Below are positions 1,991 to 63,641 of a stretch of 64,000 bases of DNA, piece after piece. The first letter of the stretch is position 1. Each line of letters begins with the position of its first letter. Source of the DNA: Raja brachyura (Eukaryota); NCBI GenBank assembly GCA_963514005.1, contig OY740781.1:29760001-29824000 (forward strand). Direction: 5' to 3'. The translations under genes and the position numbers were made by a program. Under the pieces are notes generated by a model that was not told where the DNA came from, did not search any database, and worked only from the letters and a program-made list of their open reading frames with translations.

Positions 1991-4416
1991 CTAGCTGAGG
2001 AACTGCATATTAACAAATAAGGACAGGAAGATGAGTCACAAATTGCAATGAAGCCACTGGTTCGACAGGTGGGCACATGATCCATCATGCTGGGACAGTC
2101 CACTTTCAACTACACCGCTGGTATTTTTATTGCGCTGTCAGTAAGACTTATGGTAAAGTAATTGCACATTGCAGACCAAGAAGATTGTCAGGTCAACACC
2201 CAAAATGTGTGGCAGCTCTTCCTCAAACAGAAATCTGCAAGATGGTAACTGAAACTAGCTTGCTGCATGTACCGGCCGCTTTACACCCATAGAACATTCA
2301 CACATCACGTTCCAATGTTGTGCCACAAACACACTCGTGATACTCCACATTCATCACTTGTTCGCTGCCATTGGGAGCAGCTGAAGTCTTCATTCAACAT
2401 TAGCCGCAGCAGTTCAAGATTCCTCATTCGGAAGCAACCGCATTTAAAATCTGCCTGTGCCTTAAAGAGAATGCTTCTACTAAACTTGGGGAGAACAACT
2501 GATACATGAGGAAGTGGAGTTTCCCCTTTCCATTTCCCTATTGCCCTTCTCCAATGGGCAACCAATGCTTATTCAAGCAGTCTTTCTTTCTATACGAGTC
2601 CATAACAGAATGTTTTACTTGAACATGGCTTTATATCCTAGTCTCAATTTAGCAGGTTACTCCATTCCCTTGGTCTAAAGTTAACCGAGGTCAGTTATAT
2701 CACCCCACAGCCAATAAAAATGAGAACAGAAAAATAAAGTGATTTTATCCCCTCCAAACTGTTTCCTCCCCCACCCTAAACCTATTTTAGTCATACAGTG
2801 TGGAAACAGGCTCTTCAACCCAACCTGCCCGTGCCAACCAACATGTCCCATCAACACTAGTCCCACGTGACAGTCTGGCCCATATCTCTCTAAACCTAAC
2901 CTATCCACGTACTGTCCAAATGTCTTTCAAACCCAGTGATAGTACCTACCTCAACTACCTGCTCTGGCAACTCAGTCCATACACCAGTCACACTTTGTTT
3001 AACGAAGTTGTCATTCATGTACCTATTCAATTTCATTCCTCCTCCTCTCCTCCCCCCCCCCCTCCGAATTTTGATTCCCCTACTCCGAGGAAAATAATCT
3101 CTGCATTTAATCTATTTGTTCCGCCCATAATCTTATACACCTCTATAAGATCAACCCTCATCCTCCAGTGCTTCAAGCAATAAAGTCCTATAAAGTCTGC
3201 ATGGACAGGGGGGTGCGGGGTTCCGGGTCCTCAAAGAGCACAGATGGAAGATAAATGATCAATACTGGGGGCGGTGGAGGGGGAGGGGGAGGCGCTTTGG
3301 TGACAGTAATGGTTGACATTTCTTTTCTCTCCGAGTGTGACCAGCAGATGTGCGAGCTGTTGCTCATGTCATGAAACAGCATCAAGTGGAGATAACCTGA
3401 GACTGAGACTTGCTGAAGAAAAAAAATACACACAAACACATGAGGAAACATCGCCATGGCAGCAGGCGGGGAGCCAAGCTAGCGCCTGTGGGTCATTTAA
3501 TCCCGAGTCCTGCTCGGTGCCAGAGACAAGGCAGTGTTAGTTATCTTTTACACAGTGGAGCGCAAAGGTCAGTACGAGACGGCACCAGCATGTCCTCTCG
3601 GTGAAGGCAAATGTGATGTGCAGCTGATAAGGTTTCTCTGAAGCCTCTCCCCCCCCCCCCCCTGCACTACACCTCCTTCCCCCACCTCAAATAGTCCTCA
3701 ATCAAGAGGTCAGCCAATGCCTATTATGGCCATGGCCTCAACCAACCTTCGGTAAAATGCTATGGGGCTCAGTTTATGGAGGCTGGGTTTCAGCTGACTC
3801 TTGGCTCAACACAACGTCTGTCTAATGCTTCTCTTGACCTCTCCGCCACTTGGCAGAACGCCGAGAAGCAAGAAACGCAGAAAGATACATATGTCCTCTT
3901 AAGACACAAGTCAAAGATGAAACGGTTCTGTGAGGTTTAGACATTTCTTTAGCAAGATCCTCCGTAATCAGCTGTAAGAACAGGTGTCAAGGGTTATGGG
4001 GAGAAGGCAGGGAAATGGGGTTAGGAGGCAGCGATCAGCCATGTTTGAATGGTGGAATAGGCTTGATGGGCCGAATTACCTAATTCTACTCTCATAACCT
4101 GTAATCTCCAACAAAATGCTTTCATGGATTTACTCAAAGGTTGGTGAGTATTTTTAACCAGCTGCCACAGGGTGTAGCTGAGGCTGGCACTATAAGAACA
4201 TTTAAAATACACCTGGACAGGTACATGGATAGGAAAGGTTGAGAAGGATGCGGGCCAAACATGGGTAAATTGAACCATCTTAGATGGGGCATCTTTGTCG
4301 GCATGAAAGGTTGAAATCACGAATTCAATGATATGCTCAAGTTACTAAAATATGTGGAGCTACGAAAATGTAGGAGTTAGTAACTGCAAGGCCACATTGC
4401 ATGTGGGTATTGATTA

Positions 4417-4897
4417 CATAGAAACATAGAAAATAGGTGCAGGAGTAGGCCATTCGGCCCTTCGAGCCTGCACCGCCATTCAATGTGATCATGGCTGATC
4501 ATCCAACTCAGTATCCCGTACCTGCCTTCTCTCCATACCCCCTGATCCCTTTAGCCACAAGTGCCACATCTAACGCCCTCTTAAATATAGCCAATGAACT
4601 GGCCTCAACTACCTTCTGTGGCAGAGAATTCCAGAGACTCACCACTCTCTGTGTAAAGAATGTTTTCCTCATTTCGGTCCTAAAGGAATTCCCCCTTATC
4701 CTTAGACTGTGACCCCTTGTTCTGGACTCCCCCAACATCGGGAACAATCTTCCAGCATCTAGCTTGTCCAACCCCTTAAGAATTTTGTAGGTTTCTATAA
4801 GATCCCCCCTCAATCTTCTAAATTCCATCGAGTACAAACCGAGTCTATCCAATCTTTCCTCATATGAAAGTCCTGACATCCCAGGAATCAGTCTGGT
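4417..4897 (-). mobile_element. CR1 3' fragment, young subfamily
   Basis: Peptide and 3' UTR nearly identical to the 52201-55330 copy. Confidence 0.92.
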
Positions 4898-10205: not shown

Positions 10206-11884
10206 TTCCTCTGTCGGAGGAATCTACCAGTTTCCCAAAAAAAACAAGGTGTGGTGGGGAGCTGGGTGGAGGGGACAGAAGCGCAACCAGTTTTCGATCC
10301 AAAACATCACATTCTCTCTGAGCAAAGCAAAGCAAAAGTGCTTTGCAACATTCACTCTTGTACCAAAACTATAAAGTCAATTAAAACTTTTTTTTTATTT
10401 TTTAAATGCTACAAAGTCTTCCTCTGTGGTTTTCAACGATCAAAACAAACGTAGCTTTGAGAAGCAAGAAAGCGAAGCACCATCCCCACCACCCTGCGGT
10501 CTCTGCTGCTTTTTGCACAGAGAAGCGGATCCAGCAGTGCCTGAACTCAACGAGCAGCAAGCCCGACATTCAGAAATGCAAGGGAGAGAATGCCAGAAGG
10601 GAGCCTGGAAAACTGAACTGCCTCAAATATTTACAGACAAGACATTGATTTAAAGAAAATGAAGTCTGGGTGTATTCAGGCAAACTTATTTCAGGTCCTG
10701 GGAAATGACTGGGGAGGGAAATAAAAGGATTACAAAGCTTTTATACCATTCTTTAAAAAAAAAACAGATCAATTCCCGTCGACTCTCAACCCAGTTCAAT
10801 GGTTTGCAGGTCCCTGTGGACAGGCATCCTATGTTCCCAGTTCTTCGTTACTTTCTCTTGCAAGATTCAGGGCAACATTAGCTTCCTCCCACCCTCAAGT
10901 GCCATCCTCTCCACCCCACATCCCTTCCACTCTTCTTCCCCACCAATGGCAAGACTACGTGTTCAATGCTTTTCGAGAAGCATCACGTTTTAATAGCAAG
11001 ATCCTGAGAATTCTTGCTATGTCTCTCTCTCTCTCTCTTCCTCCCAGTCACTCTCTCTCTCCCCTTGCACAAGCCTCGGACCCAGGAGAATAGGTTCAGC
11101 CTTTCCAGAAATCTGAATGGGTTTCAGGAAATGCAATTGATTTTCAGGTGCAGCTGCGTTCCATTAACGGCACAGAGGAGACTGAGATAGAGAGGGAGAG
11201 AGGCGGGAGCCAGGGTAGATGGGCAGAGACAGAGAGGGACATAGTGGCGGCCTGGGCCAACCAGTCTGAATGATGTTTATGAAGTACGCTGTGCACACAT
11301 TTCCCAAATTACATTCGTGCCTCCTGTTTAAAAGCACCTCACTGGCTGCTAAATGACTGGGACATCCCCAGGACATATACACGCACGCATACAGGTTGCC
11401 AATACAGACTGCCTGGGCCACACCATAAAAAGCCACGAGACCCATGTACTTGAGATTTATGTTGTCCCACCATTGAAAAGCAAGTGCTGTAAGTGTAGTT
11501 CGGGAGAAAACAAACTATTTAATTTCAGGTGTCTGAATGGTTGACACATGGATGTGCAAAGAATGCTGTGGAGTAACTCAGCAGGTCAGGCAGCATCTCT
11601 GGAGAAAAGGGAATAGGTGACGTTTTGGGTAGGAACCCTTCTTCAGACTGAAAGTAGAGGTGAGGTGGGGAGAAATAAACTAGGGGCACAAGATGCATGG
11701 AGCATCTTCGTTCCCCATGAGTACCACTGAGCTTTGTGCACAGTCCTGTCAGGATCAGCAGGTTCAGCCGGCAGTCATGTTAACATCCTCTGTATTGGAA
11801 TCGACAGTACCAGCAAAGTGAGTCAGGAGCTGTGGGTGGACAATACTTTGACTGAATCCACTGTCGTGGGAATTCATAAGCATG

Positions 11885-12792: not shown

Positions 12793-14052
12793 CCAGGCAC
12801 GCCCCATTACTTTGTTTGTTGCACCTTAAAACTGTGCCTGTAGTGCTCTGACATTTCTCTCCTGGGGAAAAAAGATTCTGACTGACGATCTATGCCTCTC
12901 ATAATTTTATAAACTTCTATCAGGTCTCCCCTTCAACCTCTGGCACTCCAGAGACACCAATATAAGTTTGTCCAACCTTATAGCTAATACCCTCTAACCC
13001 AGGCAGCATTTTGATCAACCTCTTCTGCGTCCTCTCCATCCTTCCAGATGTTCCAGAGTTCTGTTTGTAACCCGAACAGTTCAAAAATCAGCAATGTGAC
13101 CATGACCTGCCTTCTAACACTGCAGAAGGTGGCTGCAGATATGGGTTATCCCATTGCAATAAATAAATACTCATGAAGCATTTTAGATCTTGTTCTGCCA
13201 CTCTTGATAGTACAGCTGATTTTACAACTTTAGCCCACAGTTGTCTCGGGCTAATAACAATAGCCGTTTAAAAGGCATTGATAGGACAGGTTTGCAGGGA
13301 TATGGAGCAAATGCAGGCAGGTGGGACTAGTGTAGCTGGGACATGTTGGCCAGTGTGGACAAGTTGGGCCAAATGGCCTGTTGCCAAACTATCTCATTCT
13401 ACGACTCAGTAAAAGATTTACAGCCGATGCGTATTGAAATGCTATAGACTGAAAATGGACACTGCTGTTGCTTGCCCCGGACGGACAGCGTGTCTCCAGA
13501 TAGGATTGGCAAAATGGAGACATCAACATGTTAACTAGACAGTATTCTTCCTGGGTCTGATGTGGCAAAATTCCAGCTAGTGTTAAGAACAGTTGCTGCA
13601 GCCTCGCGGCAGCCGGCAAATCCATCCCGCCGGTCTCCCAAACACCTGTTCACATAAGCCTGCCGTTCATAAACCGGGGATGACCTGCAAAAGGTTGTTT
13701 TGAAGAAGGATCCGAAGGACCCGAAACATCGCCTATCCATGTTCTCCCGCGATGCTGCCTGACCGGCTGAGTTACTCCAGCACTTTGTGTCTTATTTTAT
13801 AAACCAGCGTCTGCAGTTCCTTGTTTCTGCAAGGGCCTCATATGTTTTGGGGACTCCGGCTGCAGCTTAGATATAGAGGTTTCCATAAACTGCAACAGGC
13901 CACCACTCTGTGACATCATTGGCAAAATGCCACGGCTTGTCTATTCAATGATCGAGATGACTATCTGGTCAATCAACCCCATTCTGGGTACAGAACAACC
14001 GAGGAATAGATAGAATGACCATGGCTTCAGAAATTCAGCTGGAACCTGGAAG

Positions 14053-18072: not shown

Positions 18073-20539
18073 ACCTGCTCATGTGCCTCACAGCTTATCC
18101 GGACATGCACCAAAGTACGTCCTCTCTGCAGTCTGAAACATCAGACATATGGCAGCAAAGTTGTACTGTGGAGTTTAGATCGGTGGTGGTGAAATACCGC
18201 ATAAGGAGAGCACATCCCAGAGTCATGCTACAAAGGCCAGTTGCTACTGAAAGTACAGCAGAGGCGTTTGGTAAACTAACACAGAATTCATTCAGCCTTC
18301 AATAAGCTAACCTTTACTTCCGTTTTCCTGCATTTCACTTTTGATTTCGCTGATGAAAGCCATCTCCTAAAAAAAATGTTTGCCTTGTTTTTCGTGCTAC
18401 AGTTCAGCGTAAGAACTGGATAGAGAGGGAGTAATGTGGGCTCATTTTCTTTGGCTCTTCGCCAAGATATTTCCATTTCCTAGCCAGCCAAATTGAAATA
18501 CCTCAAATACTGGGCGACTCATTAGAACTTAAGAGCAGTATGTTATTTGGGAAGACCAAGCCTATATTAAGACTGAGCACAATTGTAGTGTGTCTCTTCA
18601 CATCTCTTCTGTTCTCTGTGCTATTGAATCGTCTGTCGATTCAGACGATTGCACTCAAATAATGTGCCGGATATCTTCACGTTTCAGCTGAAAATCTCTC
18701 CACAAACATTGACGAAAACTACTATTCACCTACAACAACCTCTTAGTGCATTGAATCCAAATTCCCCTCAACTCAACTGAGTTTTTCAAACTCAGCTTCC
18801 GATTGTTAACAACCAGAGATATCTCGTATTCAATATGAGATTATTGCTGTTCTCTACATCAGAGTAACTTACAAAAAACACTCAAAAACAAATTAGCTGA
18901 AATATTATTGAAAGCTCAAATCCTGGGGCAACACGTGTTAAGCCACCCTCCTCCCCCGCCCCCCCCATCCCCCTCCACTGTCTGTGTTTATTGAAAGGCA
19001 GTTTCTCAGGAGATTTCACGACCTAAACTGTCCTGAGGTATTTCTTGTGCTTCTCTGAAGAGTGATCTTCTCTGTTGATTGCACAAGCAGAATAGGTAAA
19101 TGAGATGAGCTGTTACCTTGTGGGTAACAAAGGGACCAAGCGCACAGTCACATATGCAACAGTGGTTGCAACATTGCAGATTTTTGCATATAGATTATAG
19201 ATTTTTGTTTGCTCACTCCCCAACTAATTGTTCCACCCCTTGCCCACACCGGCCAACATGTCCCACCTGCCTGCACTTCATGCATATCCCTCCAAACAAG
19301 TCCTATCCATGTACCAGAGGAAGGGCACCAATTTCAGTGGGTAAACCCTTTTATCCCACCCTACGGATACAGCAGCACTGATGAAATGTCTGTTGGATCT
19401 TTCTGGCTAGTTCATCTCAACTTGATGCTGACCAGTTTCCAGCAGTTAAACCGTAAAAATAAAAATTGGATTTAAGACATTGGATTGAAAAATTAGATTG
19501 AAGTAGACTAGCAAGTGCCCTATTGTGAACCACAATGGGGTTCTCCTTGGAAATTGTATTCAGACACTTTGACTTGTGGGAATGGTTACATCTCTAAAAT
19601 GAGGGAATGAAAAGACACAAGGAAACCTCTTCCTCAGATTCCAAACGCTACAGTTGGCAACACTTCCCAAAAGTAACTGGGCTTTTCCTTCCTTAAAGGC
19701 AGCTTCAGATTGTGGCCCTCTGTTTACATAGACAACACTAGCCTTTATGTCAATACTTGCAGGAAGTTATTCCACCTCAGCTAATGGGGGAACATCAGGC
19801 GCTGCTCATCTATTTCCCTACAAGGGCCAAGTTTTATCTGTTTTCAAATTTACTATTATTTCCTCTGTTGGGCAGAAATTTGGATTAGTTGTAAGAAGAA
19901 ACTTTCATTTGGGAGGATGTAGATAAGGCACTCACGAACAGGTCAACACATGTTGTTTGAAGTTAGGACATTTCTTCAAAAGATGCAGACCAGAGCACTA
20001 AAGGCGATTCCTTACCCAACTCAGCAAATATCTTAATGTCTTAAGTTTTCCAAAAACCATTAGTTCAATTGTAGGAATAAAGCAGCCAGAGTTTTAAGAA
20101 TGAGTACTAAATTCAGATAGATCAAACATATTCAATTAGTTTAGTCTAAAGAAGGGTTCTGACCTGAAACGTCACCCATCCATGTTCTCCCGAGCTGCTG
20201 CCTGATCTGCCGAGTTACTTCGGCACTTTTGGGTAAACCAGCACCTGCCGTTCGTTGTTTCTACTCATTCGGTTAAATCATGCCTGATCAGTCCTTGAAT
20301 TTTATACAGGTCCTCCCCAACTTACAAGCTGCCAATTTAGGTACCGTCCACACAAGAACACGAACCAGCGTTTGAGAGAACAGCGGGTTGGACGTGAGCT
20401 GCTGTGGGATCGGTTCATGGCCCAATTCAGACGTGCAAATGGTTTGGGTTGTGAACAGTTCTCAGGACCGGAACTCTGCTGTAACCTGGGGAGGAGCTGT
20501 GCTCCTCAAAACACTTCCTTTGTAAAACCAATGAGAGTG

Positions 20540-21065: not shown

Positions 21066-21679
21066 ACTATCCATTAATACAATGAATTCAAATGCAAGCA
21101 ATGACAACAGAACATCCAGACTTACATATGAAGTCACCAAATCTTCGTAGCATAATATGCTGACTGTAACATTGATAATTAGGAAAACCTGAAAAGGGCC
21201 CATACCAAAAAGTCACCTACCCATGTCCTCCAGAGAAGCTGCCTGACCTGCTGAGTTATTCCAGAATTTGTGTGTTTTTCTTTCAACGATTGGGCAAGAA
21301 TCAGTGTTTCATTGGGAGAGGAGTGCAGGTGAAAAGACGAGATAGAAGACATCTTTCCTGAATTATAGCTTGTTCTATCTCCAGACCCCAAGTCTGGAGA
21401 TAGTCTGAAATAAACTCGAAGTAAAAGTCAGTCTGCAGGGGAGATGAGATCTATGCTTTGTTCAGGCAAGACTGAGGGGACAGCAGACATGAAAGACAGG
21501 CTTTTTGGCCAAGGCACAAACAAGCTAGTGATGAACATCCAAGCACTTGCACATCAGAATGAGATGCTTCAGAAGATGGGTGTGTTGAATGGAAAGTCAA
21601 GCATCCGATGAACTAGTGGCTTCATGACTCTATTTAATTGGAAAAGTAAACGTATTTCAAAGGCAATACGTAAATATTA

Positions 21680-21998: not shown

Positions 21999-23151
21999 CA
22001 GCTTGCAACTTAAAAAATAATTCCCGTGTTTAAAATTATTATTGACCCATTTCCACAGACATACATCTCGGCCCACCTCACCCAAAGGAATATCACAGTC
22101 AACATTCCTGCTTCTCTTTTCTAATGCAGAGCACTGCGCGCCACAAGGCGGCCGACTTCAGACAACCACATAATTTCCCTGTCCAACCCTGGCGACGAAC
22201 AAAACATTGCTGTGCTCTCTACCCTGTGCTGCTGCGACTGAACTCATGTAAAAGAACCAATGTGCTCCAACAAGTCAGAACTCACTGACGCCGGCCACTT
22301 GAGCAATGTTATTCAGAGTACAAATGTTCCTCTCAAGATGGCAGCCTATGGGGTTGATGAATATGGCTTTCATGGGTGGGAGATTTGTGGAGCATTAAGA
22401 TGTTTGCAATTCCACACAGCCGAGTACAACATTTGCCTCATACAATCTCATCTCAAGATTTGTTCTTGCACACTCCACAAAGAACAGTTTGGACAGGTCG
22501 TACCTTGAAAATAATGCCTAAACTGAGAAATCATAAAAGATCTAGGAGTGTTCCCTATTGATAAAAGAACATAAGATTCATAACTGTAAACCTTCATTGG
22601 TTTTCCCCATACATAGAAATACTCAAAGCTTTCTCATGAATGCTGTTGCTCAATACCAACTCTCACATCAAGGGTCTCGACCTGAATCGTCACCTCTTCC
22701 TTTTCTCCAGAGATGCTGCCTGACTCGCTGAGTTACTCCAGCATTTTGTGTCTATCTTCTAATTTGATTAATCTGTTGTGTTGCAGAGGACTCCCAGCTG
22801 AAGCCCAGTTTAGCTGCACACCAAAGGACACAGGTAGACCAAAGAGCCCACACCGATGCAGTTGGGTTTTTCTTAAAGAAACAGTCAAGACATTAAAAGT
22901 ACTGCATTATATAGAATCAGAAGATTAGATCCCCAATCTCTATAAAGTCAGTTTCCTCAGCTAGTATAACAGTGAATCAGTGCAAATGGCTGCAGAGATC
23001 CTGGATTAGACGTATAACTTTACAGTACATTAACAGGCCCTTCGGCCCACGATGATTGTGCTGAACATGATGCCAAGTTAAACTAATCTTTTTTTGACTG
23101 CATGTGATCCATATCGCTCCATTATCTGCATATCCATGTGCCTATCTAATA

Positions 23152-23346
23152 GAAGATAGACACAAAAAGCTGGAGTAACTCAGCGGATCAGGCAGCATCC
23201 CTGGAGAAAATGGGTGACGCCTCAACCCAAAACGGCACCCATTCCTTTTCTCCAGAGATGCTGTCTGACCTGCTGAGCTACTCCAGCTTTTTGTGTCTAT
23301 CTTCCGTTTAAACCAGCATCTGCAGTTCCTTCCTACACATTTTGTC
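23152..23346. mobile_element. Penelope pLTR inverted mini-insertion
   Basis: Arms at 23152-23215 and 23235-23304 are inverted copies; TSD TGCCTATCT(A/C)ATAG. Confidence 0.8.
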
Positions 23347-30330: not shown

Positions 30331-32563
30331 CCTCCTGTAGCTGATCTTGTAGGCGCAGGAGGCAAGACCCGCACCGGTTCTTCTCACTGGTCTCCTTGTC
30401 CAGCATCCCTCGCCATCTCCCTCCACCTCCTCTTCGATTCCTGATACAAACACAAGGAGAAAACAGAAGTGGTGACCGAAAACTTGGAGAAAGAGAAAGG
30501 TTCATCACAGTCTCACACAAACCCCTGCGCTTCTTCTCACCCACCGGCGATAAACAACGTACATTTACAGAATGTCTTTAACGCCTTCAATGAGATTCCA
30601 CCACCACTCAGGAGAAAGGTCCCAACCCAAAATGTCACCTATTTATGTTCTCCCGAGATGCTGCCTGACCAGCTGAGTTACAACAACACTTTGCTTGGTG
30701 TTTTTACCAGTCACATATTTGCCTCTTCTTGCCTTTCACCATTCTGAAGGGACCATTTCATTTTCGACTCCCTGGTCTGTTACTTAATTTCCACCATCCA
30801 TTCTCTCTCTCACGATACTTTCACACACAACTTCAGGAGGCGCAAAACTTGGCCGTTAAATGACGATAGACACAAAGTGCTGGAGTAACAGCGGGTCAGG
30901 TAGCATCGCTGGAGGAACAAAACTGTAAATATACGTGGTTCATTACAACTCTGTGTTTGGCTCTTCCCTTCCCAGAATTCAGGGGCCCCAACCCTTCTTC
31001 GAGGTGAACTGCTGATTCACTTGCAATCTATGACATTTCAGTCATGATGGGTTCCACTCCATGCTGGATACACTAAATGTAGAATGAGAGATTGCTGTGC
31101 AGAACAGCTGTATTAGGTCTGCAGAGGTGATTCTGACTTTCCTGATGTTGCCCATTTTAATTGATAATGGTGATGATGGTACTTTATTGTCACTTGTACC
31201 TAGCTGGGTGCAGTGAAATTCTTTGTTTTTGCGTACAAAGTATACAAAAGAGTCGCCACAAAAGTGCCAAAAAAGTTGCAAAAACTACTCATCTCACAAT
31301 ATATTCTCCATCTCATTCCAAGTCTGACCTGTCTGTTTTTGCACCATTGTAAAGGAACCCAATATAAGCCTAAGGAAGAGCATCTCATGTGTCGAAAGGA
31401 ACTGCAGATGCTGGTTTAAACCAATGATAGACAGAAAAAGCTGGAGTAACTCAGCTCGTCAGACAGCATCTATGGAGAATAGAAATAGGTGACGTTTCGG
31501 GTCGAGAACCTTCAGAATCATCTTCATCTCATCTTCCACTTGGGCACACAGCATTGTGATTAGTACGGGTGTCAGAGGTTATGGGGAGAAGGTAGGAGAA
31601 TGGGGTTAGGAGGGAGAGATATATCAGCCATGATTGAATGGCGGAGTAGACTTGATGGGCCGAATGGCCTAATTCTGCTCCTCTCAATTATGATCTTATG
31701 ACAGCACGCTTCTGCATTGAATATCAAACTCCACAGGTAATATGCTTTCTCTCCTTGCATCAGACTGGCTATATCGGCTGAGGTCATCTATCCATGTTAT
31801 TAGTTTAACTTTCCTCCCTCCAGTTGAATGGCCTGATCTGCTGAATATTGCCTGCAGCTCTGCATTACACAGCTTTGATAGTTCAGTTTAGTTTAGTTTA
31901 TTGTCATGTGTACCGAAGTACAGTGATAAGTTTTGTTGCGTGCTAACCAGCGAGTGGAAAGACTATACATGATTACAATCGAGCCATGCCCAGTGTACAT
32001 GATAATAGGAATAACGTTTAGTGCATGATAAAGTCCAGTAAAGTCTGTGATATTCCTTTGTGTTCTGACTCTCTGCTCTCATTTCATTGTCTTTATGTTC
32101 TGGTTCCCTGAACAGCTTCGTCAACCCATTAATTGGATGACTTCTATCTACCCCTTATCTTAATCTATACTCGGTCTACACTCTATCCAGATATTTCCTT
32201 TCTCCTATCCATCCTTCCTCTATCTTCCCTGCAACTTAAAACCAAGTTTTATTAAACTAACTAGGTTTTCTCTCTTCTCCATTCTGAATAAAAGATCTTT
32301 GGTCTGAAATATTAATGCTGTTCACTTTGGTGAATTTATTCAGAAGGCTCTGCTTTCAGTCATTTGGAATCTCAAATGTCTATTCTTCTAAACTCCAGAA
32401 ACATCAGCGCAGATCACTATTTTGATCTTCATATAAGGCAAGCACATTACATCAGGAACTAATCTGACAAACCTGTTCTATATTCCCAACAAGACAGTAT
32501 TCTTTAATTAGGAAGATCAAAATTGTAAAAAAAAATCAGGCCCTTAGAAGGAGCTTGTTTATG

Positions 32564-33877: not shown

Positions 33878-34428
33878 AGGATAGACACAAAATGCCGGAA
33901 TAACTCAGCAGGACAGGCACCATCTCTAGATAGAAGGAATGGGTTTTGGGTCGAGACCCTTCTTCAGGCTGAATCAGGGGAGAGGGAGATACAGAGATAA
34001 GGAAGTGTAAGGTGTGAAAACTAGACAAATGGGATAGAGATCAAGGAAAACATAGAATAGATCATTGTTATCTAGGAGAAGATAACAACAAAGCAAACAG
34101 AGATCAAATGTAAATGAGGACAGTCAGACTAGTCAGAAAACTGGGAAGGGGGGAGGGATGGAGAGAGAGGAAAGGCAAAGGTTACTTGAAGTTAGCTAAG
34201 TAAATATTCATACTGCTAGGGCTGCCCAAGCAAAATATTAGGTGTTCCTCCAATTTGCACTGAGCTTCAGTCTGACAATGGAGGAGGCCCAGAGCAGAAA
34301 GGATAATGTGGGAATGGGAGGTGGTGTTAAAATGCCTGGGAATTAGCAACCAGAAGATCAGATAGGCTTAGGCGGACTGAGCAGAGGTGTTCAGCGAAAC
34401 AATTGGAGAGCCTGTGCTTGGTCCAATC
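33878..34428 (-). mobile_element. Penelope-like element 3' end (GIY-YIG C-terminus + pseudo-LTR)
   Basis: Minus strand encodes decayed TKHRLSNCFAEHLCSVR...HFN..SHSH..LS.LGLLHCQ.EA..KLEEHLIF.LG...MNI...NFK*, then a pyrimidine tract and the dispersed pLTR repeat. Confidence 0.82.
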
Positions 34429-34459: not shown

Positions 34460-35078
34460 ATAGGAGCAGGGAGGTTCTACTGCAGGTGTACAGGGTTTTG
34501 GTGAGGCCACACCTGGAGTATTGCGTACAGTTTTGGTCTCCAAATCTGAGGAAAGACATCCTTGCCATAGAGGGGGTACAGAGAAGATTCACCAGACTGA
34601 TTCCTGGGATGTCAGGACTTTCATATGAGGAAAGATTGGATAGACTCGGCTTGTACTCGCTGGAATTTAGAAGATTGAGGGGGGATCTTATAGAAACTTA
34701 CAAAATTCTTAAGGGGTTGGACAAGCTAGATGCTGGAAGATTGTTCCCGATGTTGGGGGAGTCCAGAACAAGGGGTCACAGTCTAAGGATAAGGGGGAAT
34801 TCCTTTAGGACCGAAATGAGGAAAACATTCTTTACACAGAGAGTCGTGAGTCTCTGGAATTCTCTGCCACAGAAGGTAGTTGAGGCCAGTTCATTGGCTA
34901 TATTTAAGAGGGCGTTAGATGTGGCACTTGTGGCAAAAGGGATCAGGGGGTATGGAGAGAAGGCAGGTACGGGATACTGAGTTGGATGATCAGCCATGAT
35001 CACATTGAATGGCGGTGCAGGCTCGAAGGGCCGAATGGCCTACTCCTGCACCTATTTTCTATGTTTCTATGTTTCTAT
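34460..35078 (+). mobile_element. CR1 3' fragment, young subfamily
   Basis: RPHLEYCVQFWSP...GYGEKAGTGY plus (TTTCTATG)n tail, near-identical to the 52201-55330 copy. Confidence 0.92.
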
Positions 35079-35736
35079 GATTCTGCTATTTCCAATTGTA
35101 TTTCCTGTGGCTCCGTCTTGTACGTGTCCCTTTCCTGCCTCCTGTTTTCTTGCACTTTTATTTTTACCCTTGGATATTTTTTCTTGCCTTCTGCTCTTAT
35201 TTAGATCCTGTATTCTTTCTTCTTCCTATCTCTATTTGCATTTTAAAGTGATATCATCATCATTTCCAATCCCAAAAATAGTTGAGGCAGGTACAATAAC
35301 AACATTTAAAATACACTGTCACAGGTACATTGATAAAAAGGATTTAGAGGGATATGGGCCAGACCTAGACAAATGGGACTTGCTAAGAAGAGGTATCTTG
35401 GTCAGCATGAATGAGTTGACCTGAATGTTTCCATGCTGTATGTCTCTGTGATTCTATGATTGGCAATTGACCTGAAACTAAGTATTTTTGTCTCCACAGA
35501 GGATGCCTGACCCACTCAATATTTAGACTATTTTCTGCATTTGCTATCTCTGGATACTGTTTTGAAATGGAAGTCCAACATTATAAGATCTTGAATGAGA
35601 CTGTGTGCAACTATCAATAAAACTTAACCTCCACTTCCCCCTCCCTCACCTTCCTCACCAAGCATTGCGGCATTCTGAGCTGACTTTGCCAGAGACCTTG
35701 CACACTATAATCAAGAAACAGGCCAGAAGATATGTC

Positions 35737-36415: not shown

Positions 36416-37595
36416 GGGTCCAAAGCAAGATGGACAACGTAACGTTACTGATAAGATTACATAAGGTTACTTCAGTCTGAAGAAGGGTTTCGGCCCGAAA
36501 CATTGCCTATTTCCTTCACTCAATAGATGCTGCCGCACCCGCTGAGTTTCGCCAGCACTTTTGCCCACCTAAGGTTTCTCTTGTGCTCTTTACTTATATT
36601 AACCTAGTGAATGCTTTTTCGGTCACTAGGGAAATCCCAATTTGGGTTTTGGAATTAGAAGTCCCATTTCATCGTCTACTTAACTTTCTGAACAGGTCAC
36701 CCATGTGATGGTGGGTCAGTAAATCAAAAAGGTTGCCAAAAACTGTTTGACATGGATACTATTGTGAATATGGATCATGAACTGCAGTCGATTTGACTTG
36801 TCATTTTGCGTCACCTGCTTTCTTGACCTTCATCTGGACCACTGCTTAAAGATAAGAGATCAACTATTTAAGGCTTAGAACTCTCTTCCACAAAGAGTGG
36901 TGGAGGCAGATTTGTTGTCTCTCTGCAACAAATGCTTTTCACTGTATCTTGGTTTATTGTTTGTGCAATAAACTGAACTTAACTAAACGCAAACTCAGCT
37001 CAACTCTTCTTAAGGCCAAGTTTGGTAGATTATTGAAAAGCAAGGAGTGAGGGTATCTGCGGGTTAGGTGGGCACGCAGAGATGAAGTTTACAAATCGAT
37101 CAGTCGTAATCTTATTCAATACATCGTCAAATGTGCAACAAAGATATAAGGTACCTCATTTGTGTTGAATAAGTACCTCCCTACTGGAAATTGGAAGGTA
37201 ATGCTTAATTCATCTATTATAGAAAGATAGAAATAAATTAATCTGCATTGTAACTGCCGATCTTGACTCATTGCTGCAATGTGGGTGTTTCTAACCACCA
37301 ACAGGAGGAATCAAGAGTCAAGAGTGTTTTATTGTCACAAGTCCCATAATTCTCTACAAGGATTGCCAATCCTCCCTCCACAAGATAATTCACTCATGAG
37401 GAACAGCAAAAATGTCCATTTACATTATTTGAGTTTATACCTAATTACAAAGGTTATAGTGAGATGTCAGAGATCTCCCAAGGAAATTATTAGCAATTCC
37501 AGGTGTGGGAAATCAGTATGGTAAGCACAGATGTGGTAAGTACTAACCTGTATTCATTCAGCCAGGTCTTACAGTAAGGATAACAGTATCTGAGC

Positions 37596-37712
37596 ATAGA
37601 CACAAAAAGCTGGAGTAACTCAGCGGGACAGGCAGCATCTCTGGAGCTGAGTTACTCCAGCTTTTTGTGTCTATCTTCGGTATAAACCAGCATCTGCAGT
37701 TCCTTCCTACAC
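37596..37712. mobile_element. Penelope pLTR inverted mini-insertion
   Basis: Perfect 29-bp inverted repeat; TSD ACAGTAT(C/T)TGAGCA. Confidence 0.8.
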
Positions 37713-43840: not shown

Positions 43841-45059
43841 CAATCTCACATTAAAAATTAAGAATGGCCTATATTCTAATCCTTAACGAATGAAAAATTG
43901 TTTCCTCCAATTAATAATGGGAAATTTAAATTAAATCACTCATTAATCTAATTTCTGGAGAATACAATTCTGCCTCACCCGCTGGGTTTCTCCAGCATTT
44001 TTGTCTACCTTCGATTTTCCAGCATCTGCAGTTCCTTCTTAAACATGTATTTACTCCTAATGTAATTGTTGAAGTCTGGGTACACATTGAATGGCGGTGC
44101 TGGCTCGAAGGGCCAAATGGCCTACTCCTGCACCTATTGTCTATTGTCTACTGGTATCATATTGGTAATTGGTTATTATTGACTGTACTTCCCACAAGGC
44201 TGCCTTCCTGCCCAGAGATGTGCATAGCTCACCAGTTGCTGCCTAACTGGGCATCTTCATTGGGTATTTTCATTTGTCATTATACCTGATCCTGACATTT
44301 TAACAGTATGTATACATAGACATTGCCAAGTATTTGGATTTGCACTGCTACTAGCTTCTCACCATTTAGAAGATACTCTGTGGTAATATTCAAAGTAGGT
44401 GGTCTAATTTTCACCTTTTATCAAAATCCATTGATCGATAGTCTGGTTCATTCACTTAATCTATTTGTAACTTATTACTTCCATTTTAAAACAATGGTTT
44501 TGTCTCTGGTAAGGCATATCTTTCAACGATTGAGTTTTTGAAGAAGTGCCAAAGGTGATTGATGAGGGTAGAGGAGTGGATGTTGTCAACATGGCATTTC
44601 ACAGGGTCGCTCATGGTAGGCAAATCCAGAGATAGCGGCAAAGGCTAAAAGTGAAAATGAGGAAATAGGATATCAGATAATACAATACAATATAATACAA
44701 TACAATACCGTTTATTGTTATTTGAACCTCAAATAAGTCTAAATGAAAATAAATTTGGTTTCTGCAGTCATACAACAAGAAAAAAAACAAGACACACAAT
44801 TAACACAATTTACACAAACATCCATCCAACATGAATCTCCTCCTCACTGTGATGGAAGGCAAAGTCATTGTCTCTCCCCTGTTTTCTATTCTTCTCCCGA
44901 TGTTAAATGAATGAATGAAGAGGAGGAGTGAAATGTAAAGCGAGAGAGAGGGAGGGGTGTGGGTCAAGGGAACAGGGGCAAGGGGAAAAAGGGGTAAATG
45001 GGAAGGGACTCCCCATTTACCTCTTTTTCCATTTGACCCTGTTCATCTTCCACCCATTT

Positions 45060-45195
45060 CCGTTCGGACATTTCTGATCTTAGCCTCCTCCAGTGCCAGA
45101 TTGAGGACACAAAGAAACCAGAGCAATAGCATCTTCATGGGTAACTTATAGCCCAACTGTATTAAAACGTACTTCTCCAATTTCAGTTTAAAGAG
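45060..45195 (+). mobile_element. Penelope GIY-YIG C-terminal remnant
   Basis: DISDLSLLQCQIE...FSNFS* resembles 34180-34310. Confidence 0.5.
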
Positions 45196-45864: not shown

Positions 45865-46570
45865 GGTAAATACTACACCCGAATTGGTAAAGCTGAGGGT
45901 AGACAAAAATTCTGGAGAAACTCAGCGGGTGAGGCAGCATCTATGGAGCGAAGGAATTGGTGACGTTTCGGGTCGAGCATTTTTGTCTACCTTCGATTTT
46001 TCCAGCATCTTCAGTTCTTTCTTAAACAATTGGTAAAGCTGCATCAGTCTTCAGACGAATGCAGCCAATATGGTCAGGTGGTGAGATATCCAAGATGCTA
46101 AAAGTCAAGCTCTTCCAGTCCGTAGTCCTCCCTACAGCCCTCTATGCCAGTGGGACATGGAAAATCAATGTGAAGATGAAAAATAAATTGGATGCATTCC
46201 AACAACGCTGCTTGAGGAAGATCCTGAAGACTAGCTACAGAGACCACATCACAAACGAGGAGATCTACTGTGAAACTGCAACAAAGCCTCTCAGCCAGGA
46301 CATAGAGGGACGCAGGATGAAATTTGCAGGACATGTACTCAGAATGTCACCAGAACGTGCACCTAAGATAGCAATGTCATGGAAACCTGACGGAAGAAGG
46401 AAAAGAGGCCGTCCAAAACTCACATGGAGGCGAACATTCCAGAAGGATTTGGAAGCCCGGACGCAAGCCTATCAAGGGTGGAAGACGTCGCACATGACCG
46501 AACAGAATGGCGAAAGCTGGCTGCCCAATGCACTCAACCGTGTGGGAGGAACTAAGTCTAAATAAGTAAG
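45865..46570 (+). mobile_element. RTE-clade LINE 3' fragment
   Basis: RIGKAASVFRRMQPIW...KVKLFQSVVLPTALYASGTW...LDAFQQRCLRKIL...GHVLRM...GRRKRGRPKLTWRR; (TAAG)n tail; flanked by a long direct repeat. Confidence 0.88.
45896..46028. mobile_element. Penelope pLTR inverted mini-insertion nested in the RTE
   Basis: Perfect TSD AATTGGTAAAGCTG. Confidence 0.8.
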
Positions 46571-47224
46571 TAGTCTGTTGCTGTTCAATGTAATAAGTAG
46601 TATTCCTGTAGGCTTCTCCCCATTCTTCAGAAGTAGCTTCAGCAGAAGATTACCAGAGATACCAAGAGCACAAGAACACATTGTGTCCTTCTTGTATTTC
46701 TGTCTTCTTGAAATAAATATGGCAGAAGATTATTAAACATTCCAGAGCAAAGCTGTAAACAGTCAAGAAGATTCTACCACAGTGTTTCTTTTCCCTCGCC
46801 CCACTTCACAACAACTTTCTTCTCACCTTCCTAAAGAGATGAGTTCTGATGACTAAGAATTCAAAGCATTCTAGTAGTCAGCTGGTCAGTTTTCATGCAT
46901 AAACCTCAAAACAATATTTCAAGCTAACTCAGTCTTGTTTCTTCAAATAGTAAAATGCACGGCAGTCTGGGCTCCCCCTAAGAGCTGGATGATGGCATAA
47001 GTGACTGAAGTTGCTGGAATCTGGAGCAACAAACAATCTGCTGGTCAGGCAGCATGTTTGGATGGAATTGGACAGCTAATATTTTGGTTCGGGAATCTTC
47101 ATCTGACCCAGTCCACATGAAGGATCTCGACCTGAAAGGCTCCCGACCAGTGAACTGCTGGAACACATTTAATTCTACGCCATCAGAACTAATTCCTTTA
47201 GGAAGGTTGAAAGAAGGTTGTTGT

Positions 47225-50030: not shown

Positions 50031-50562
50031 ACTATGATTCCATAAGTCTAAATGCTGGAAAGTAAGTATGTTGAGTTCAATGTTAAAGTCCAAACACGTG
50101 TAATGGGCCAAGTCGGGAGATGTTTTTCCATGAGATTGCACTGGATCAGTGTAGGAGGCTAAAGACAGAGAGATCCAAAATGCCGTGGGATAGGGAATTA
50201 TACTCTCAAGCAGATGAACCTTCGGGAATACCCTAATGGATGGACTAGAGTGGTTCTGTAAAATTGTCAACCAATTTATGCTCTGTTTCAGCGGAATTCG
50301 TCCGTGCCGACCAAAATGCCCGATAACGCTAATCCCATTTACCTATTATTCTACCAAGTAGAAACAAGGAACTGGTTTAAACAAGAAACAAGATACTGAT
50401 TTAGCAAGGAAAGGCACAAAATGCTGGGTCAGGCACATCCCTGGAGAACACAGATAGGAGACATTTTAGGTCGGGACTTTTCTGCAGCCTGTTTGCAGGG
50501 TTGTGGAGCTCTTTCTCCTCCCACTGCAATTAGTCCAAAGAATAATCCCATGTTTTCTATGG

Positions 50563-52200: not shown

Positions 52201-55200
52201 ATAGAAACATAGAAAGATAGAAAAATAGGTGCAGGAGTAGGCCATTCGGCCCTTCGAGCCTGCACCGCCATTCAATGTGATCATGGCTGATCATCCAACT
52301 CAGTAACCCGTACCTGCCTTCTCTCCATACCCCCTGATCCCTTTAGCCACAAGTGCCACATCTAACGCCCTCTTAAATATAGCCAATGAACTGGCCTCAA
52401 CTACCTTCTGTGGCAGAGAATTCCAGAGACTCACCACTCTCTGTGTAAAGAATGTTTTCCTCATCTCGGTCCTAAAGGAATTCCTCCTTATCCTTAGACT
52501 GTGACCCCTTGTTCTGGACTCCCCCAACATCGGGAACAATCTTCCAGCATCTAGCTTGTCCAACCCCTTAAGAATTTTGTAAGTTTCTATAAGATCCCCC
52601 CTCAATCTTCTAAATTCCAGCGAGTACAAGCCGAGTCTATCCAATCTTTCCTCATATGAAAGTCCTGACATCCCAGGAATCAGTCTGGTGAATCTTCTCT
52701 GTACCCCCTCTATGGCAAGGATGTCTTTCCTCAGATTTGGAGACCAAAACTGTACGCAATACTCCAGGTGTGGCCTCACCAAAACCCTGTACAACTGCAG
52801 TAGAACCTCCCTGCTCCTATACTCAAATCCTTTCGCTATGAATGCTAACATACCATTTGCTTTCTTCACTGCCTGCTGCACCTGCATGCCTACTTTCAAT
52901 GACTGGTGTACCATGACACCCAGGTCTCGTTGCATCTCCCCCTTTCCTAATCTGCCACCATTCAGATAATAGTCTACCCTCATGCTTTTGCCACCAAAGT
53001 GGATAACCTCACATTTATCCACATTATACTGCACCTGCCATGCATCTGCCCATTCACTCAGCCTATCCAAATCACCCTGCAGCCTCCAAGCATCCTCCTC
53101 ACACCTAACTATACCCCCCAGCTTGGTGTCATCTGCAAATTTGGAGATGTTGCATTGAATTCCCTCGTCCAAATCATTAATATATATTGTAAATAGCTGG
53201 GGTCCCAGCACTGAGCCTTGCGGCACCCCACTAGTCACTGCCTGCCATTCTGAAAAGGACCCGTTCACTCCTACCCTTTGCCTCCTGTCTGCTAGCCAGT
53301 TCTCTATCCACATCAATACTGAACCCCCAATACCGTGTGCTTTAAATTTGTATGCTAATCTCTTATGCGGGACCTTGTCGAAAGCCTTCTGAAAGTCTAG
53401 ATATAACACATCCACTGGTTCTCCCTTATCCACTCTACTAGTTACATCTTCGAAAAATTCTATCAGATTTGTCAGACATGATTTACCTTTCGTAAATCCA
53501 TGCTGACTTTGTCCAATGATTTCACCACTTTCCAAATGCGCTGCTATCCCATCTTTAATAACTGACTCTAGCAGTTTCCCCACTACCAATGTTAGACTAA
53601 CTGGTCTGTAATTCCCCGCTTTCTCTCTCCCTCCTTTTTTAAAAAGTGGGGTTACATTAGCTACCCTCCAATCCTCAGGAACTACTCCAGAATCTAAGGA
53701 ATTTTGAAAAATTATCACTAATGCATCCACTATTTCTGTGGCTACCTCCTTGAGTACTCTGGGATGCAGACTATCTGGCCCTGGGGATTTATCGGCCTTC
53801 AATCCATTCAATTTACCCAACACCACCTCCCGGCTAACCTGGATGTCACTCAGTTCCTCCATCTTATTTGACCCCCGTTCCACTGCTATTTCCGGCAGAT
53901 TATTTATGTCTTCCTTAGTGAAGACAGAACCAAAGTAGTTATTCAATTGGTCTGCCATGTCCTTGTTCCCCATGATCAATTCACCTGTTTCTGACTGCAA
54001 GGGACCAACATTTGTTTTAACTAGTCTCTTTCTCTTCACATATCTATAAAAACTTTTGCAGTCAGTTTTTATGTTCCCTGCCAGTTTCCTTTCATAATCT
54101 ATTTTCCCTTTCCTAATTAAGCCCTTTGTCCTCCTCTGCTGGATTCTGAATTTCTCCCAGTCCTCCGGTAGGCTGCTTTTTCTGGCAAATTTGTATGCCT
54201 CATCTTTTGTTTTTATACTATCCCTGATTTCCCTTGTTATCCATGGATGCACCACCTTCCCCGATTTATTCTTTTGCCAAACTGGTATGAACAATTTTTG
54301 TACTTCATCCATGCAGTCTTTAAATACCTTCCATTGCACATCCACTGTCAACCCTTTAAGAATCACCTGCCAGTCTATCTTGGCCAATTCACATCTCATA
54401 CCTTCAAAGTTACCCTTGTTCAAGTTCAGAACCCTTGTTTCTGACTTAATTTTGTCACTCTCCATCCTAATGAAGAACTCAACCATATTATGGTCACTCT
54501 TGCCCAAGGGGCCATGCACAACAAGACTGCTAACTAACCCTTCCTCATTACTCAATACCCAGTCTAGAATAGCCTGCTCTCTCGTTGGTTCCTCCACATG
54601 TTGGTTGAGAAAACTATCCCGCATACATTCCAAGAAATCCTCTTCCTCAGCACCCCTGCCAATTTGATTCACCCAATCTACATGCAGATTGAAGTCACCC
54701 ATTATAACTGTGTTACCCTTGTTGCACGCATTTCTAATTTCCTGTTTGATGCCATCCCCAACTCCAATACTACTGTTAGGTGGCCTGTACACAGCTCCCA
54801 CTAGCGTTTTCTGCCCCTTAGAGTTTCGCAGCTCTACTCATATCGATTCCACATCCTCCACGCTAATGTTCTTCCTTTCTATTGCATTAATCTCCTCTCT
54901 CACCAGCAACGCTACCCCACCTCCTTTTCCTTTTCGTCTATCCCTCCTGAATATTGAATATCCCTGGATGTTCAGCTCCCAGCCTTGGTCACCCTGGAGC
55001 CATGTCTCCGTGATCCCAACTATAGCATAGTCATTAATCGCTATCTGCACCTTCAACTCATCCACCTTATTACGAATGCTCCTCGCATTGAGACACAAAG
55101 CCTTCAGGCTTGTTTTTACAACACTCTTACTCCTTATACAATTATGTTGACAAGTGGCCCCTTTCACATCGATCCCTATTATACTTGGCCATACTCTCCT

Positions 55201-63507: not shown

Positions 63508-63641
63508 TGTGTAGGATGGAACTGCAAATGTTAGTTTACACCAAAGATAGACATAAGATACTGGAGTAACTCAGCGGGACAGGCAGCATCTCTGGAGAGA
63601 AGGAATGGGTGACGTTTTGGGTCGAGACCCTTCTTCAGACT
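63508..63641 (-). mobile_element. Penelope pLTR copy
   Basis: Same repeat. Other copies at ~11560-11650, 13698-13830, 20143-20263, 21185-21275, 22670-22760, 30615-30695, 30866-30915, 31388-31516, 36472-36570, 43970-44045 and 50360-51025. Confidence 0.8.

Follow-up and report, generated by a model that had tools for sequence, protein, structure and literature searches.

The short repeat scattered over a 64,000-nucleotide stretch of the genome of the skate Raja brachyura (assembly GCA_963514005.1, contig OY740781.1, positions 29,760,001 to 29,824,000; hereafter the window) is almost certainly, to judge from its sequence, the end, or pseudo-LTR, of a Penelope-like retrotransposon of Neptune type that is present in very many copies. 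We consider it probable that the account given here holds as a whole: the pseudo-LTR would carry a weak minimal hammerhead, and its many copies, now decayed, would have been made from RNA with an intact hammerhead site.

We identified 22 matches to a repeat profile, built from the named copies, in the window (E≤0.01); five shuffles of the window gave no match. The core region is covered by 14 of the 22. The count of about 15 copies in the preliminary description therefore stands, while the single length of ~130 bp has to be replaced by two, of about 90 and of 125-135 nt. The most intact copy (36472..36563, +), of a subfamily with a UUCG loop, is the one in 22 that keeps both boxes and an NUH site; its palindrome is broken. 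G12 is changed in the copy at 11562..11651 (-) and in the one at 63510..63641 (-), which starts at the hammerhead edge and has a long tail. The first box is altered at 20143..20234 (+), truncated in a long-tailed copy at 31390..31513 (-), and missing at 22670..22759 (+) and 45900..45989 (-). A further short copy with a long tail lies at 13701..13822 (+), a head-to-head pair of short copies at 23152..23337 (both arms), and old decayed copies at 30605..30693 (+), 21193..21272 (+), 47021..47107 (-) and 50412..50488 (-). Directly downstream of the last of these is a second, more decayed Penelope endonuclease remnant (50086-50289, -; tblastn E 1e-5). Two core-less tail pieces form a fold-back at 37596..37711 (both arms), with a spurious match to a miRNA family (E 9e-5, far under the gathering score), and such tail fold-backs are likely to be a source of false miRNA calls genome-wide. 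A long imperfect hairpin with one purine-rich and one pyrimidine-rich arm (44947-45068) also gave several weak miRNA matches.

The focal copy (33880..34423, -; blastn) is a 5’-truncated Penelope-like element, comprising the C-terminus of the endonuclease, the 3’ UTR, a decayed hammerhead and a tail that runs to the shorter 3’ end. It is 87% identical to the majority sequence of its subfamily over 558 nt (blastn), and 79-84% identical to its 40 best genomic relatives. The motif had been placed downstream of a decayed GIY-YIG ORF on the same strand, and a frameshifted remnant of the endonuclease C-terminus is indeed found there (34188..34422, -; ORF residues 1130-1208; tblastn with the intact ORF of locus L223, E 2e-11); it begins directly after the tyrosine of YIG, and the GIY-YIG motif itself is absent from the copy. 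The pyrimidine-rich 3’ UTR, a part of the pseudo-LTR whose sequence depends on the subfamily, occupies 33968..34187 (-), and the hammerhead 33940..33972 (-), followed at 33880..33939 (-) by a conserved stretch beyond the cut site that reaches the first of two preferred 3’ ends. The first box and stem II are intact, U2.1 and G12 are changed, and the GUC cleavage triplet is gone, removed by a 5-nt deletion, so that the focal hammerhead is dead. No target duplication longer than 6 nt flanks the copy. Three young LINE 3’ fragments of the window (34460-35080 (+) and 52222-52820, 4416-4897 (-)), putatively CR1-like, are mutually 99% identical and end in a short tandem tail; one of them is separated by 37 bp from the focal copy, on the side of its 5’ end.

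We investigated the abundance of the family across the genome. The exact core pattern was found 70,452 times and its reversed control not once, in keeping with the abundant family that had been proposed, and the motif merged by eye in the window was identical to the majority sequence derived from 342 genomic copies with high scores. The repeat profile gave 419 matches in 96 stretches of 10 kb placed at even intervals, which scales to ~1.2 million copies, mostly 90 or 125-135 nt in length. The core was fully intact in 37 of 247 sampled copies. Selection on the core is not seen among the dispersed copies, in which mismatches amount to 7.5% in the core and 7.2% in the tail. Nor did the comparison of subfamilies, made on four majority sequences that cover 205 of the 247 aligned copies, reveal the excess of core conservation over flanks that had been anticipated, since one of 12 core positions and 16 of 60 tail positions were variable, a difference that is not significant (p=0.27). 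Loop variation had also been taken as a sign of retained stem II pairing. The majority loops are CUCG or CCCG, with UUCG in one variant subfamily, and the loops UCCU and UCUG each occur in single copies; this variation is mostly decay after insertion, at CpG sites and in individual copies, rather than covariation.

The parent element was reached by walking upstream through genomic loci, the earliest sets of which held 5’-truncated elements only. We identified a young subfamily, with 96.9-99.9% identity among 15 copies, a unit of 4,039 bp and an ATG 163 nt after C3, in which three of 18 picked loci retain an intact ORF of 1,209 aa for a reverse transcriptase and GIY-YIG endonuclease. The Pfam matches of this ORF to RVT_1 (E 7e-4) and GIY-YIG (E 2e-3) are both under the curated cut-offs; its 453 homologues include many with RVT_1 and GIY-YIG families. 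Its linker contains CX4CxxC at residue 1076, and CxxC at residue 1119 with two histidines downstream. Full-length units are preceded by their own 3’ end as a 5’-truncated copy, of 59 to >1,000 nt, and the motif is thus present in both pseudo-LTRs, which bears out the link to Penelope. Partial-tandem pseudo-LTRs, inverted 5’-truncated partners and an optional tail of 30-40 bp are present, as in EN+ Penelope-like elements. The Neptune placement was made by the linker, the EN C/H motif and the layout; the combination of a CX2-5CxxC linker with the EN C/H motif is a Neptune feature that occurs in reduced form in Nematis (PMC8557442). At one locus (L230-L231, G000:C2:3635987-3645430), an array of two complete young units, spaced by 4,043 bp, and a partial third is a candidate source element.

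The motif is very probably a true minimal type I hammerhead fold. In the young family and in the 70,452 genomic copies, though not in the focal copy, helix II is flanked by CUGANGA and GAAA boxes and an NUH site is present. The additional core features of this kind of ribozyme (an extra base after A9, G10.1-C11.1 and palindromic positions 15.1-16.1), as set out by Cervera and De la Pena in 2014 (PMC4209133), are also present. We searched metagenome contigs with the core alone, in a pattern that fixed the core and left the two adjoining base pairs unconstrained. This gave at least 121 stretches, of which 80, with flanks unlike those of the skate family, were taken and 78 were usable. Both inner pairs of helix I form in 16 of the 17 families into which these 78 matches fall, compared with a shuffle mean of 4.3 (0 of 20000), the shuffles taking no account of relatedness and the families being ones that share the core and are not necessarily Penelope elements. 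The compensatory swaps among them include CA/UG, GA/UC, GU/AC and CU/AG. In a set of 33 sequences picked by hand, either inner pair is formed in 31, and the outer two pairs in 20 and 15, with a covariation score of 0.33 against 0.11 for shuffled and at most 0.11 for slid alignments, controls that likewise leave relatedness aside. The minimal-hammerhead reading of the preliminary description is supported by this covariation across unrelated families. By eye, the unrelated families that share the core (L295-L374) often have a short conserved word about 20 nt past the cut site, with the complementary word farther downstream, an arrangement that suggests a downstream hairpin.

None of the 12 Rfam hits in the window (E≤10) was to a hammerhead, the canonical models with helices I-III being unmatched, and viral contigs gave no match. 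In energy folding, the monomer adopts an alternative hairpin as its minimum free energy structure, and the two-strand minimum (-19.7) differs from an approximate model of the hammerhead dimer (-6.7). The motif is predicted to be a weak cutter, acting as a dimer or with the protein of the element. By analogy with the elements described in PMC4209133 and PMC11167929, our best guess for the role of the ribozyme is that such weak, dimer- or protein-assisted cutting would trim the RNA.

We examined where the copies begin and end. Among the 419 profile matches, 288 start at the core, 127 start inside the repeat and four are too near the edge of the locus. The core-starting copies include 139 solo copies, 91 with an inverted partner, 51 that run on into subfamily-specific UTRs and 11 in tandem, with few overlaps between these classes; an inverted partner also accompanies 72 of the 127 that start inside the repeat, and inverted pairs are often joined at palindromes within the core. 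Once 25 solo copies without a clean core had been set aside, target duplications of 10-19 bp were found around 19 of the remaining 114, compared with 0.2 expected. The 3’ ends of solo copies cluster near +88-96 and +121-131, matching the two internal starts of reverse transcription that in vitro work on the anole element revealed (PMC11167929).

At the 5’ side, 120 of the 253 non-inverted copies start between -4 and +5, and 44 reach -5 or beyond. Starts at the predicted cut site were found in three of the 253, no more than at neighbouring positions. For the young subfamily genome-wide, 204 apparent cut-site starts compare with 196 at the one control position, 3 nt downstream, both counts including palindromic junctions. 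An apparent cleavage footprint in the older subfamily (887 against 307 pattern matches) was set aside, as the two patterns differ in stringency and as most of 100 listed cut-site matches were, by eye, short deletions or inverted junctions. Since starts at the cut site are not in excess, the copies were likely made from RNA in which the hammerhead site was intact. Such RNA may never have been cut, or may have been cut and then religated, two states that the ends of the copies would not tell apart. Three short tandems with a period of 61-63 bp have units that start at or beside the predicted cut site (G000:C1:74835266-74835567, C1:117724515-117724731 and C2:55272482-55272631); these may have arisen by stuttering on cut RNA or by slippage at palindromes.

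We additionally identified junctions from the start of the ORF back to the hammerhead. A marker spanning the 5’ UTR and ATG occurs at 3,433 places in the genome. Among 49 distinct marker pieces, two continue for ≥600 nt, most break at +175 to +310, and 25 rejoin a core within 70 nt. A strict pattern recovered 208 exact junctions genome-wide, which break at differing points and frequently include a small number of additional bases. Joints of a similar kind were found in contigs from one other study, in three of its runs; contigs from four sequencing runs were examined, two of the runs being probably DNA, and RNA starts or ends were not visible in them. By eye, among 100 listed of the 208 junctions, a G precedes re-entry in about 40 of the 51 rows that re-enter at -2 to -4. 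The scripted count was marginal (an extra G in 5 of 8, against 2.3 expected, p=0.049), and no enrichment was seen before solo copies (10 in 42, against 12.9 expected; 10 in 28, against 8.1). Many junctions re-enter 40-130 nt upstream, and together with pseudo-LTRs that reach 59 to >1,000 nt upstream, this indicates that not all templates start at the hammerhead.

Some of these junctions form tandems of 191, 209, 214, 239 or 311 bp, with two to four hammerheads; tandems with two hammerheads span 190-310 bp. A 311-bp tandem with three cores (L294:1775-2500) and a 214-bp tandem with four junctions (G000:C6:81429375-81430084) each combine the pseudo-LTR with the start of the ORF, and are candidates for nascent retrozymes. 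Hammerhead tandem units of 170-400 nt, of the non-LTR retrozyme type, were absent from the window.

We lean towards a mechanism of run-off and jumps for the formation of these copies, drawn from the ends and junctions in the genome sequence. The RNA would start, capped, 2-6 nt before C3, a position that would explain the short helix I. Reverse transcription would begin internally, at the tail, and run off at the cap to give a product of 90-135 nt. Joined to the target, this product would become a solo copy; joined to a second product, a head-to-head pair; and by jumping to RNA further downstream, it would give a tandem of 190-310 bp with two hammerheads. The extra G at the jump junctions is what copying of the cap would give. 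A more specific version is offered tentatively, at somewhat less than even chances: the hammerhead would be the first 30-35 nt of a capped RNA, a strong-stop cDNA would extend from tail to cap and then jump, such jumps would rebuild the pseudo-LTRs, and the short tandems with two hammerheads, which number in the hundreds and would be independent of one another, would be retrozymes at birth.

The ends at the hammerhead edge might instead reflect stalling of the reverse transcriptase, at the folded ribozyme, at a bound protein or at the palindrome that spans the first box, and not the start of the RNA. We regard this as unlikely, if deserving of attention. In its favour, inverted pairs frequently join at core palindromes, the excess of G is absent before solo copies, and 51 of 288 core-bearing copies continue into the 3’ UTR. 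The element of D. virilis points in the same direction: transcription there starts 46 nt upstream of an intron (PMC2377424), and it is the end of this intron that marks helix I (PMC4209133), so that the start is not at the hammerhead edge. However, the ends fall just beyond the structure and not at its 3’ side, and the G frequently seen by eye at jump junctions is as expected of cap copying. It is less probable still that the hammerheads of both pseudo-LTRs cut, with ligation of the unit RNA into a circle on which rolling copying restores the site and makes the partial tandems, as in the model stated by Cervera and De la Pena (PMC4209133). The seamless, more-than-unit layout of full-length copies would follow from this, and religation would erase any footprint at the cut site; but the pile-up at the 5’ edge and the hundreds of different jump junctions are left unexplained, and in the anole element mutation of the ribozyme left in vitro insertion unaffected, and reads ending at the cut site were absent (PMC11167929).

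The motif might equally be a catalytically idle relic in the skate lineage, kept as a promoter or a protein-binding signal, a reading to which we give the same low probability as the circular template. A helix I of 2 bp, the missing footprint at the cut site, unfavourable folding and conservation that continues through the tail are all compatible with it, and Naiad elements thrive without hammerheads (PMC8557442). Against this, the catalytic positions are all intact in the young family and in the majorities of three large subfamilies, whereas the UTR upstream is unalignable, and the changes between subfamilies, which are from A-U to G-U in both helix I and stem II, preserve pairing as well as an NUH site. 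Finally, we considered whether the hammerhead edge is a splice acceptor, the short copies deriving from pseudo-LTR exons joined by splicing or back-splicing. In the subfamilies seen, the motif follows a pyrimidine tract and CAG, and a donor-like site lies directly before the ATG. In one head-to-head insertion (L242:1000-1600) both arms carry exactly the predicted junction, which links a point shortly ahead of the ATG with the hammerhead edge, and this locus looks spliced or copied from a circular template. That locus stands alone, however, supplying two of the three matches when up to 3 mismatches are allowed; unspliced markers number 3,433, 208 junctions fall at various other points, and two bases of microhomology can explain its junction; splicing as the origin of the short copies is very improbable, and we rejected it.

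The minimal hammerhead kind has been known since 2014, with examples already published from fish Neptune, Poseidon and Xena elements (PMC4209133), and the skate family is a further member of that kind. Neither this family nor a strong-stop model was found in the literature, searched without Repbase and most subscription papers, and the two supplement files of PMC4209133 seen contain no shark or skate terms; Lunse et al. 2017 may list shark or skate examples. The skate genome bears on the role of these hammerheads and on the origin of pseudo-LTRs through the many insertion ends and jump junctions that it preserves. The strong-stop reading, if true, would make the jumps of a retrovirus-like strong-stop cDNA the missing route by which Penelope pseudo-LTRs are rebuilt. 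The young family, with its 96.9-99.9% identity and intact ORF, may be used to test the mechanism and also whether retrozymes arose from pseudo-LTRs, as has been proposed; the 2026 preprint (bioRxiv 10.64898/2026.07.22.740005) ties retrozymes to pseudo-LTRs and includes one chondrichthyan.

Compared with the Neptune-clade EN+ elements (PMC8557442), the skate element shares the single ORF, with RT plus a GIY-YIG domain at the C-terminus, and the CX2-5CxxC linker, as well as the partial tandems, inverted 5’-truncated partners and tail of 30-40 bp; it differs in an ORF of ~1,200 aa with a long proline-rich region, and in an estimated 1.2 million copies, mostly of 90-135 bp. With the published minimal hammerheads (PMC4209133) it shares the position in both pseudo-LTRs, both core boxes, the extra base after A9, G10.1-C11.1, the palindromic positions 15/16, the absence of helix III and the predominance of single dispersed copies from truncated elements. 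Helix I is of 2 bp and helix II of 4 bp in the skate; helix I is of 4-5 bp in S. mansoni and 2 bp in D. virilis. The 70,452 exact cores of the skate compare with ~4,000 descriptor hits in the coelacanth and ~9,000 in Xenopus (PMC4209133), counts obtained by different methods.

Two preferred 3’ ends ~35 nt apart, downstream of the hammerhead, are shared with PAc, the Poseidon element of Anolis carolinensis (PMC11167929), as is the lack of any sign that cut RNA serves as template; in the PAc scheme, head-to-head pairs would follow if the two DNA strands were both cut and extended. In contrast, the PAc ORF starts inside stem II, whereas that of the skate starts 163 nt after C3, and the skate element belongs to a different clade and is known from the genome alone. 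Metazoan non-LTR retrozymes (PMC7229834; bioRxiv 10.64898/2026.07.22.740005) have tandem units of similar size, each with one type I hammerhead and derived from pseudo-LTRs. The skate units carry minimal rather than canonical hammerheads, and the skate tandems, seen here in genome sequence, each have a junction of their own and two to four repeats.
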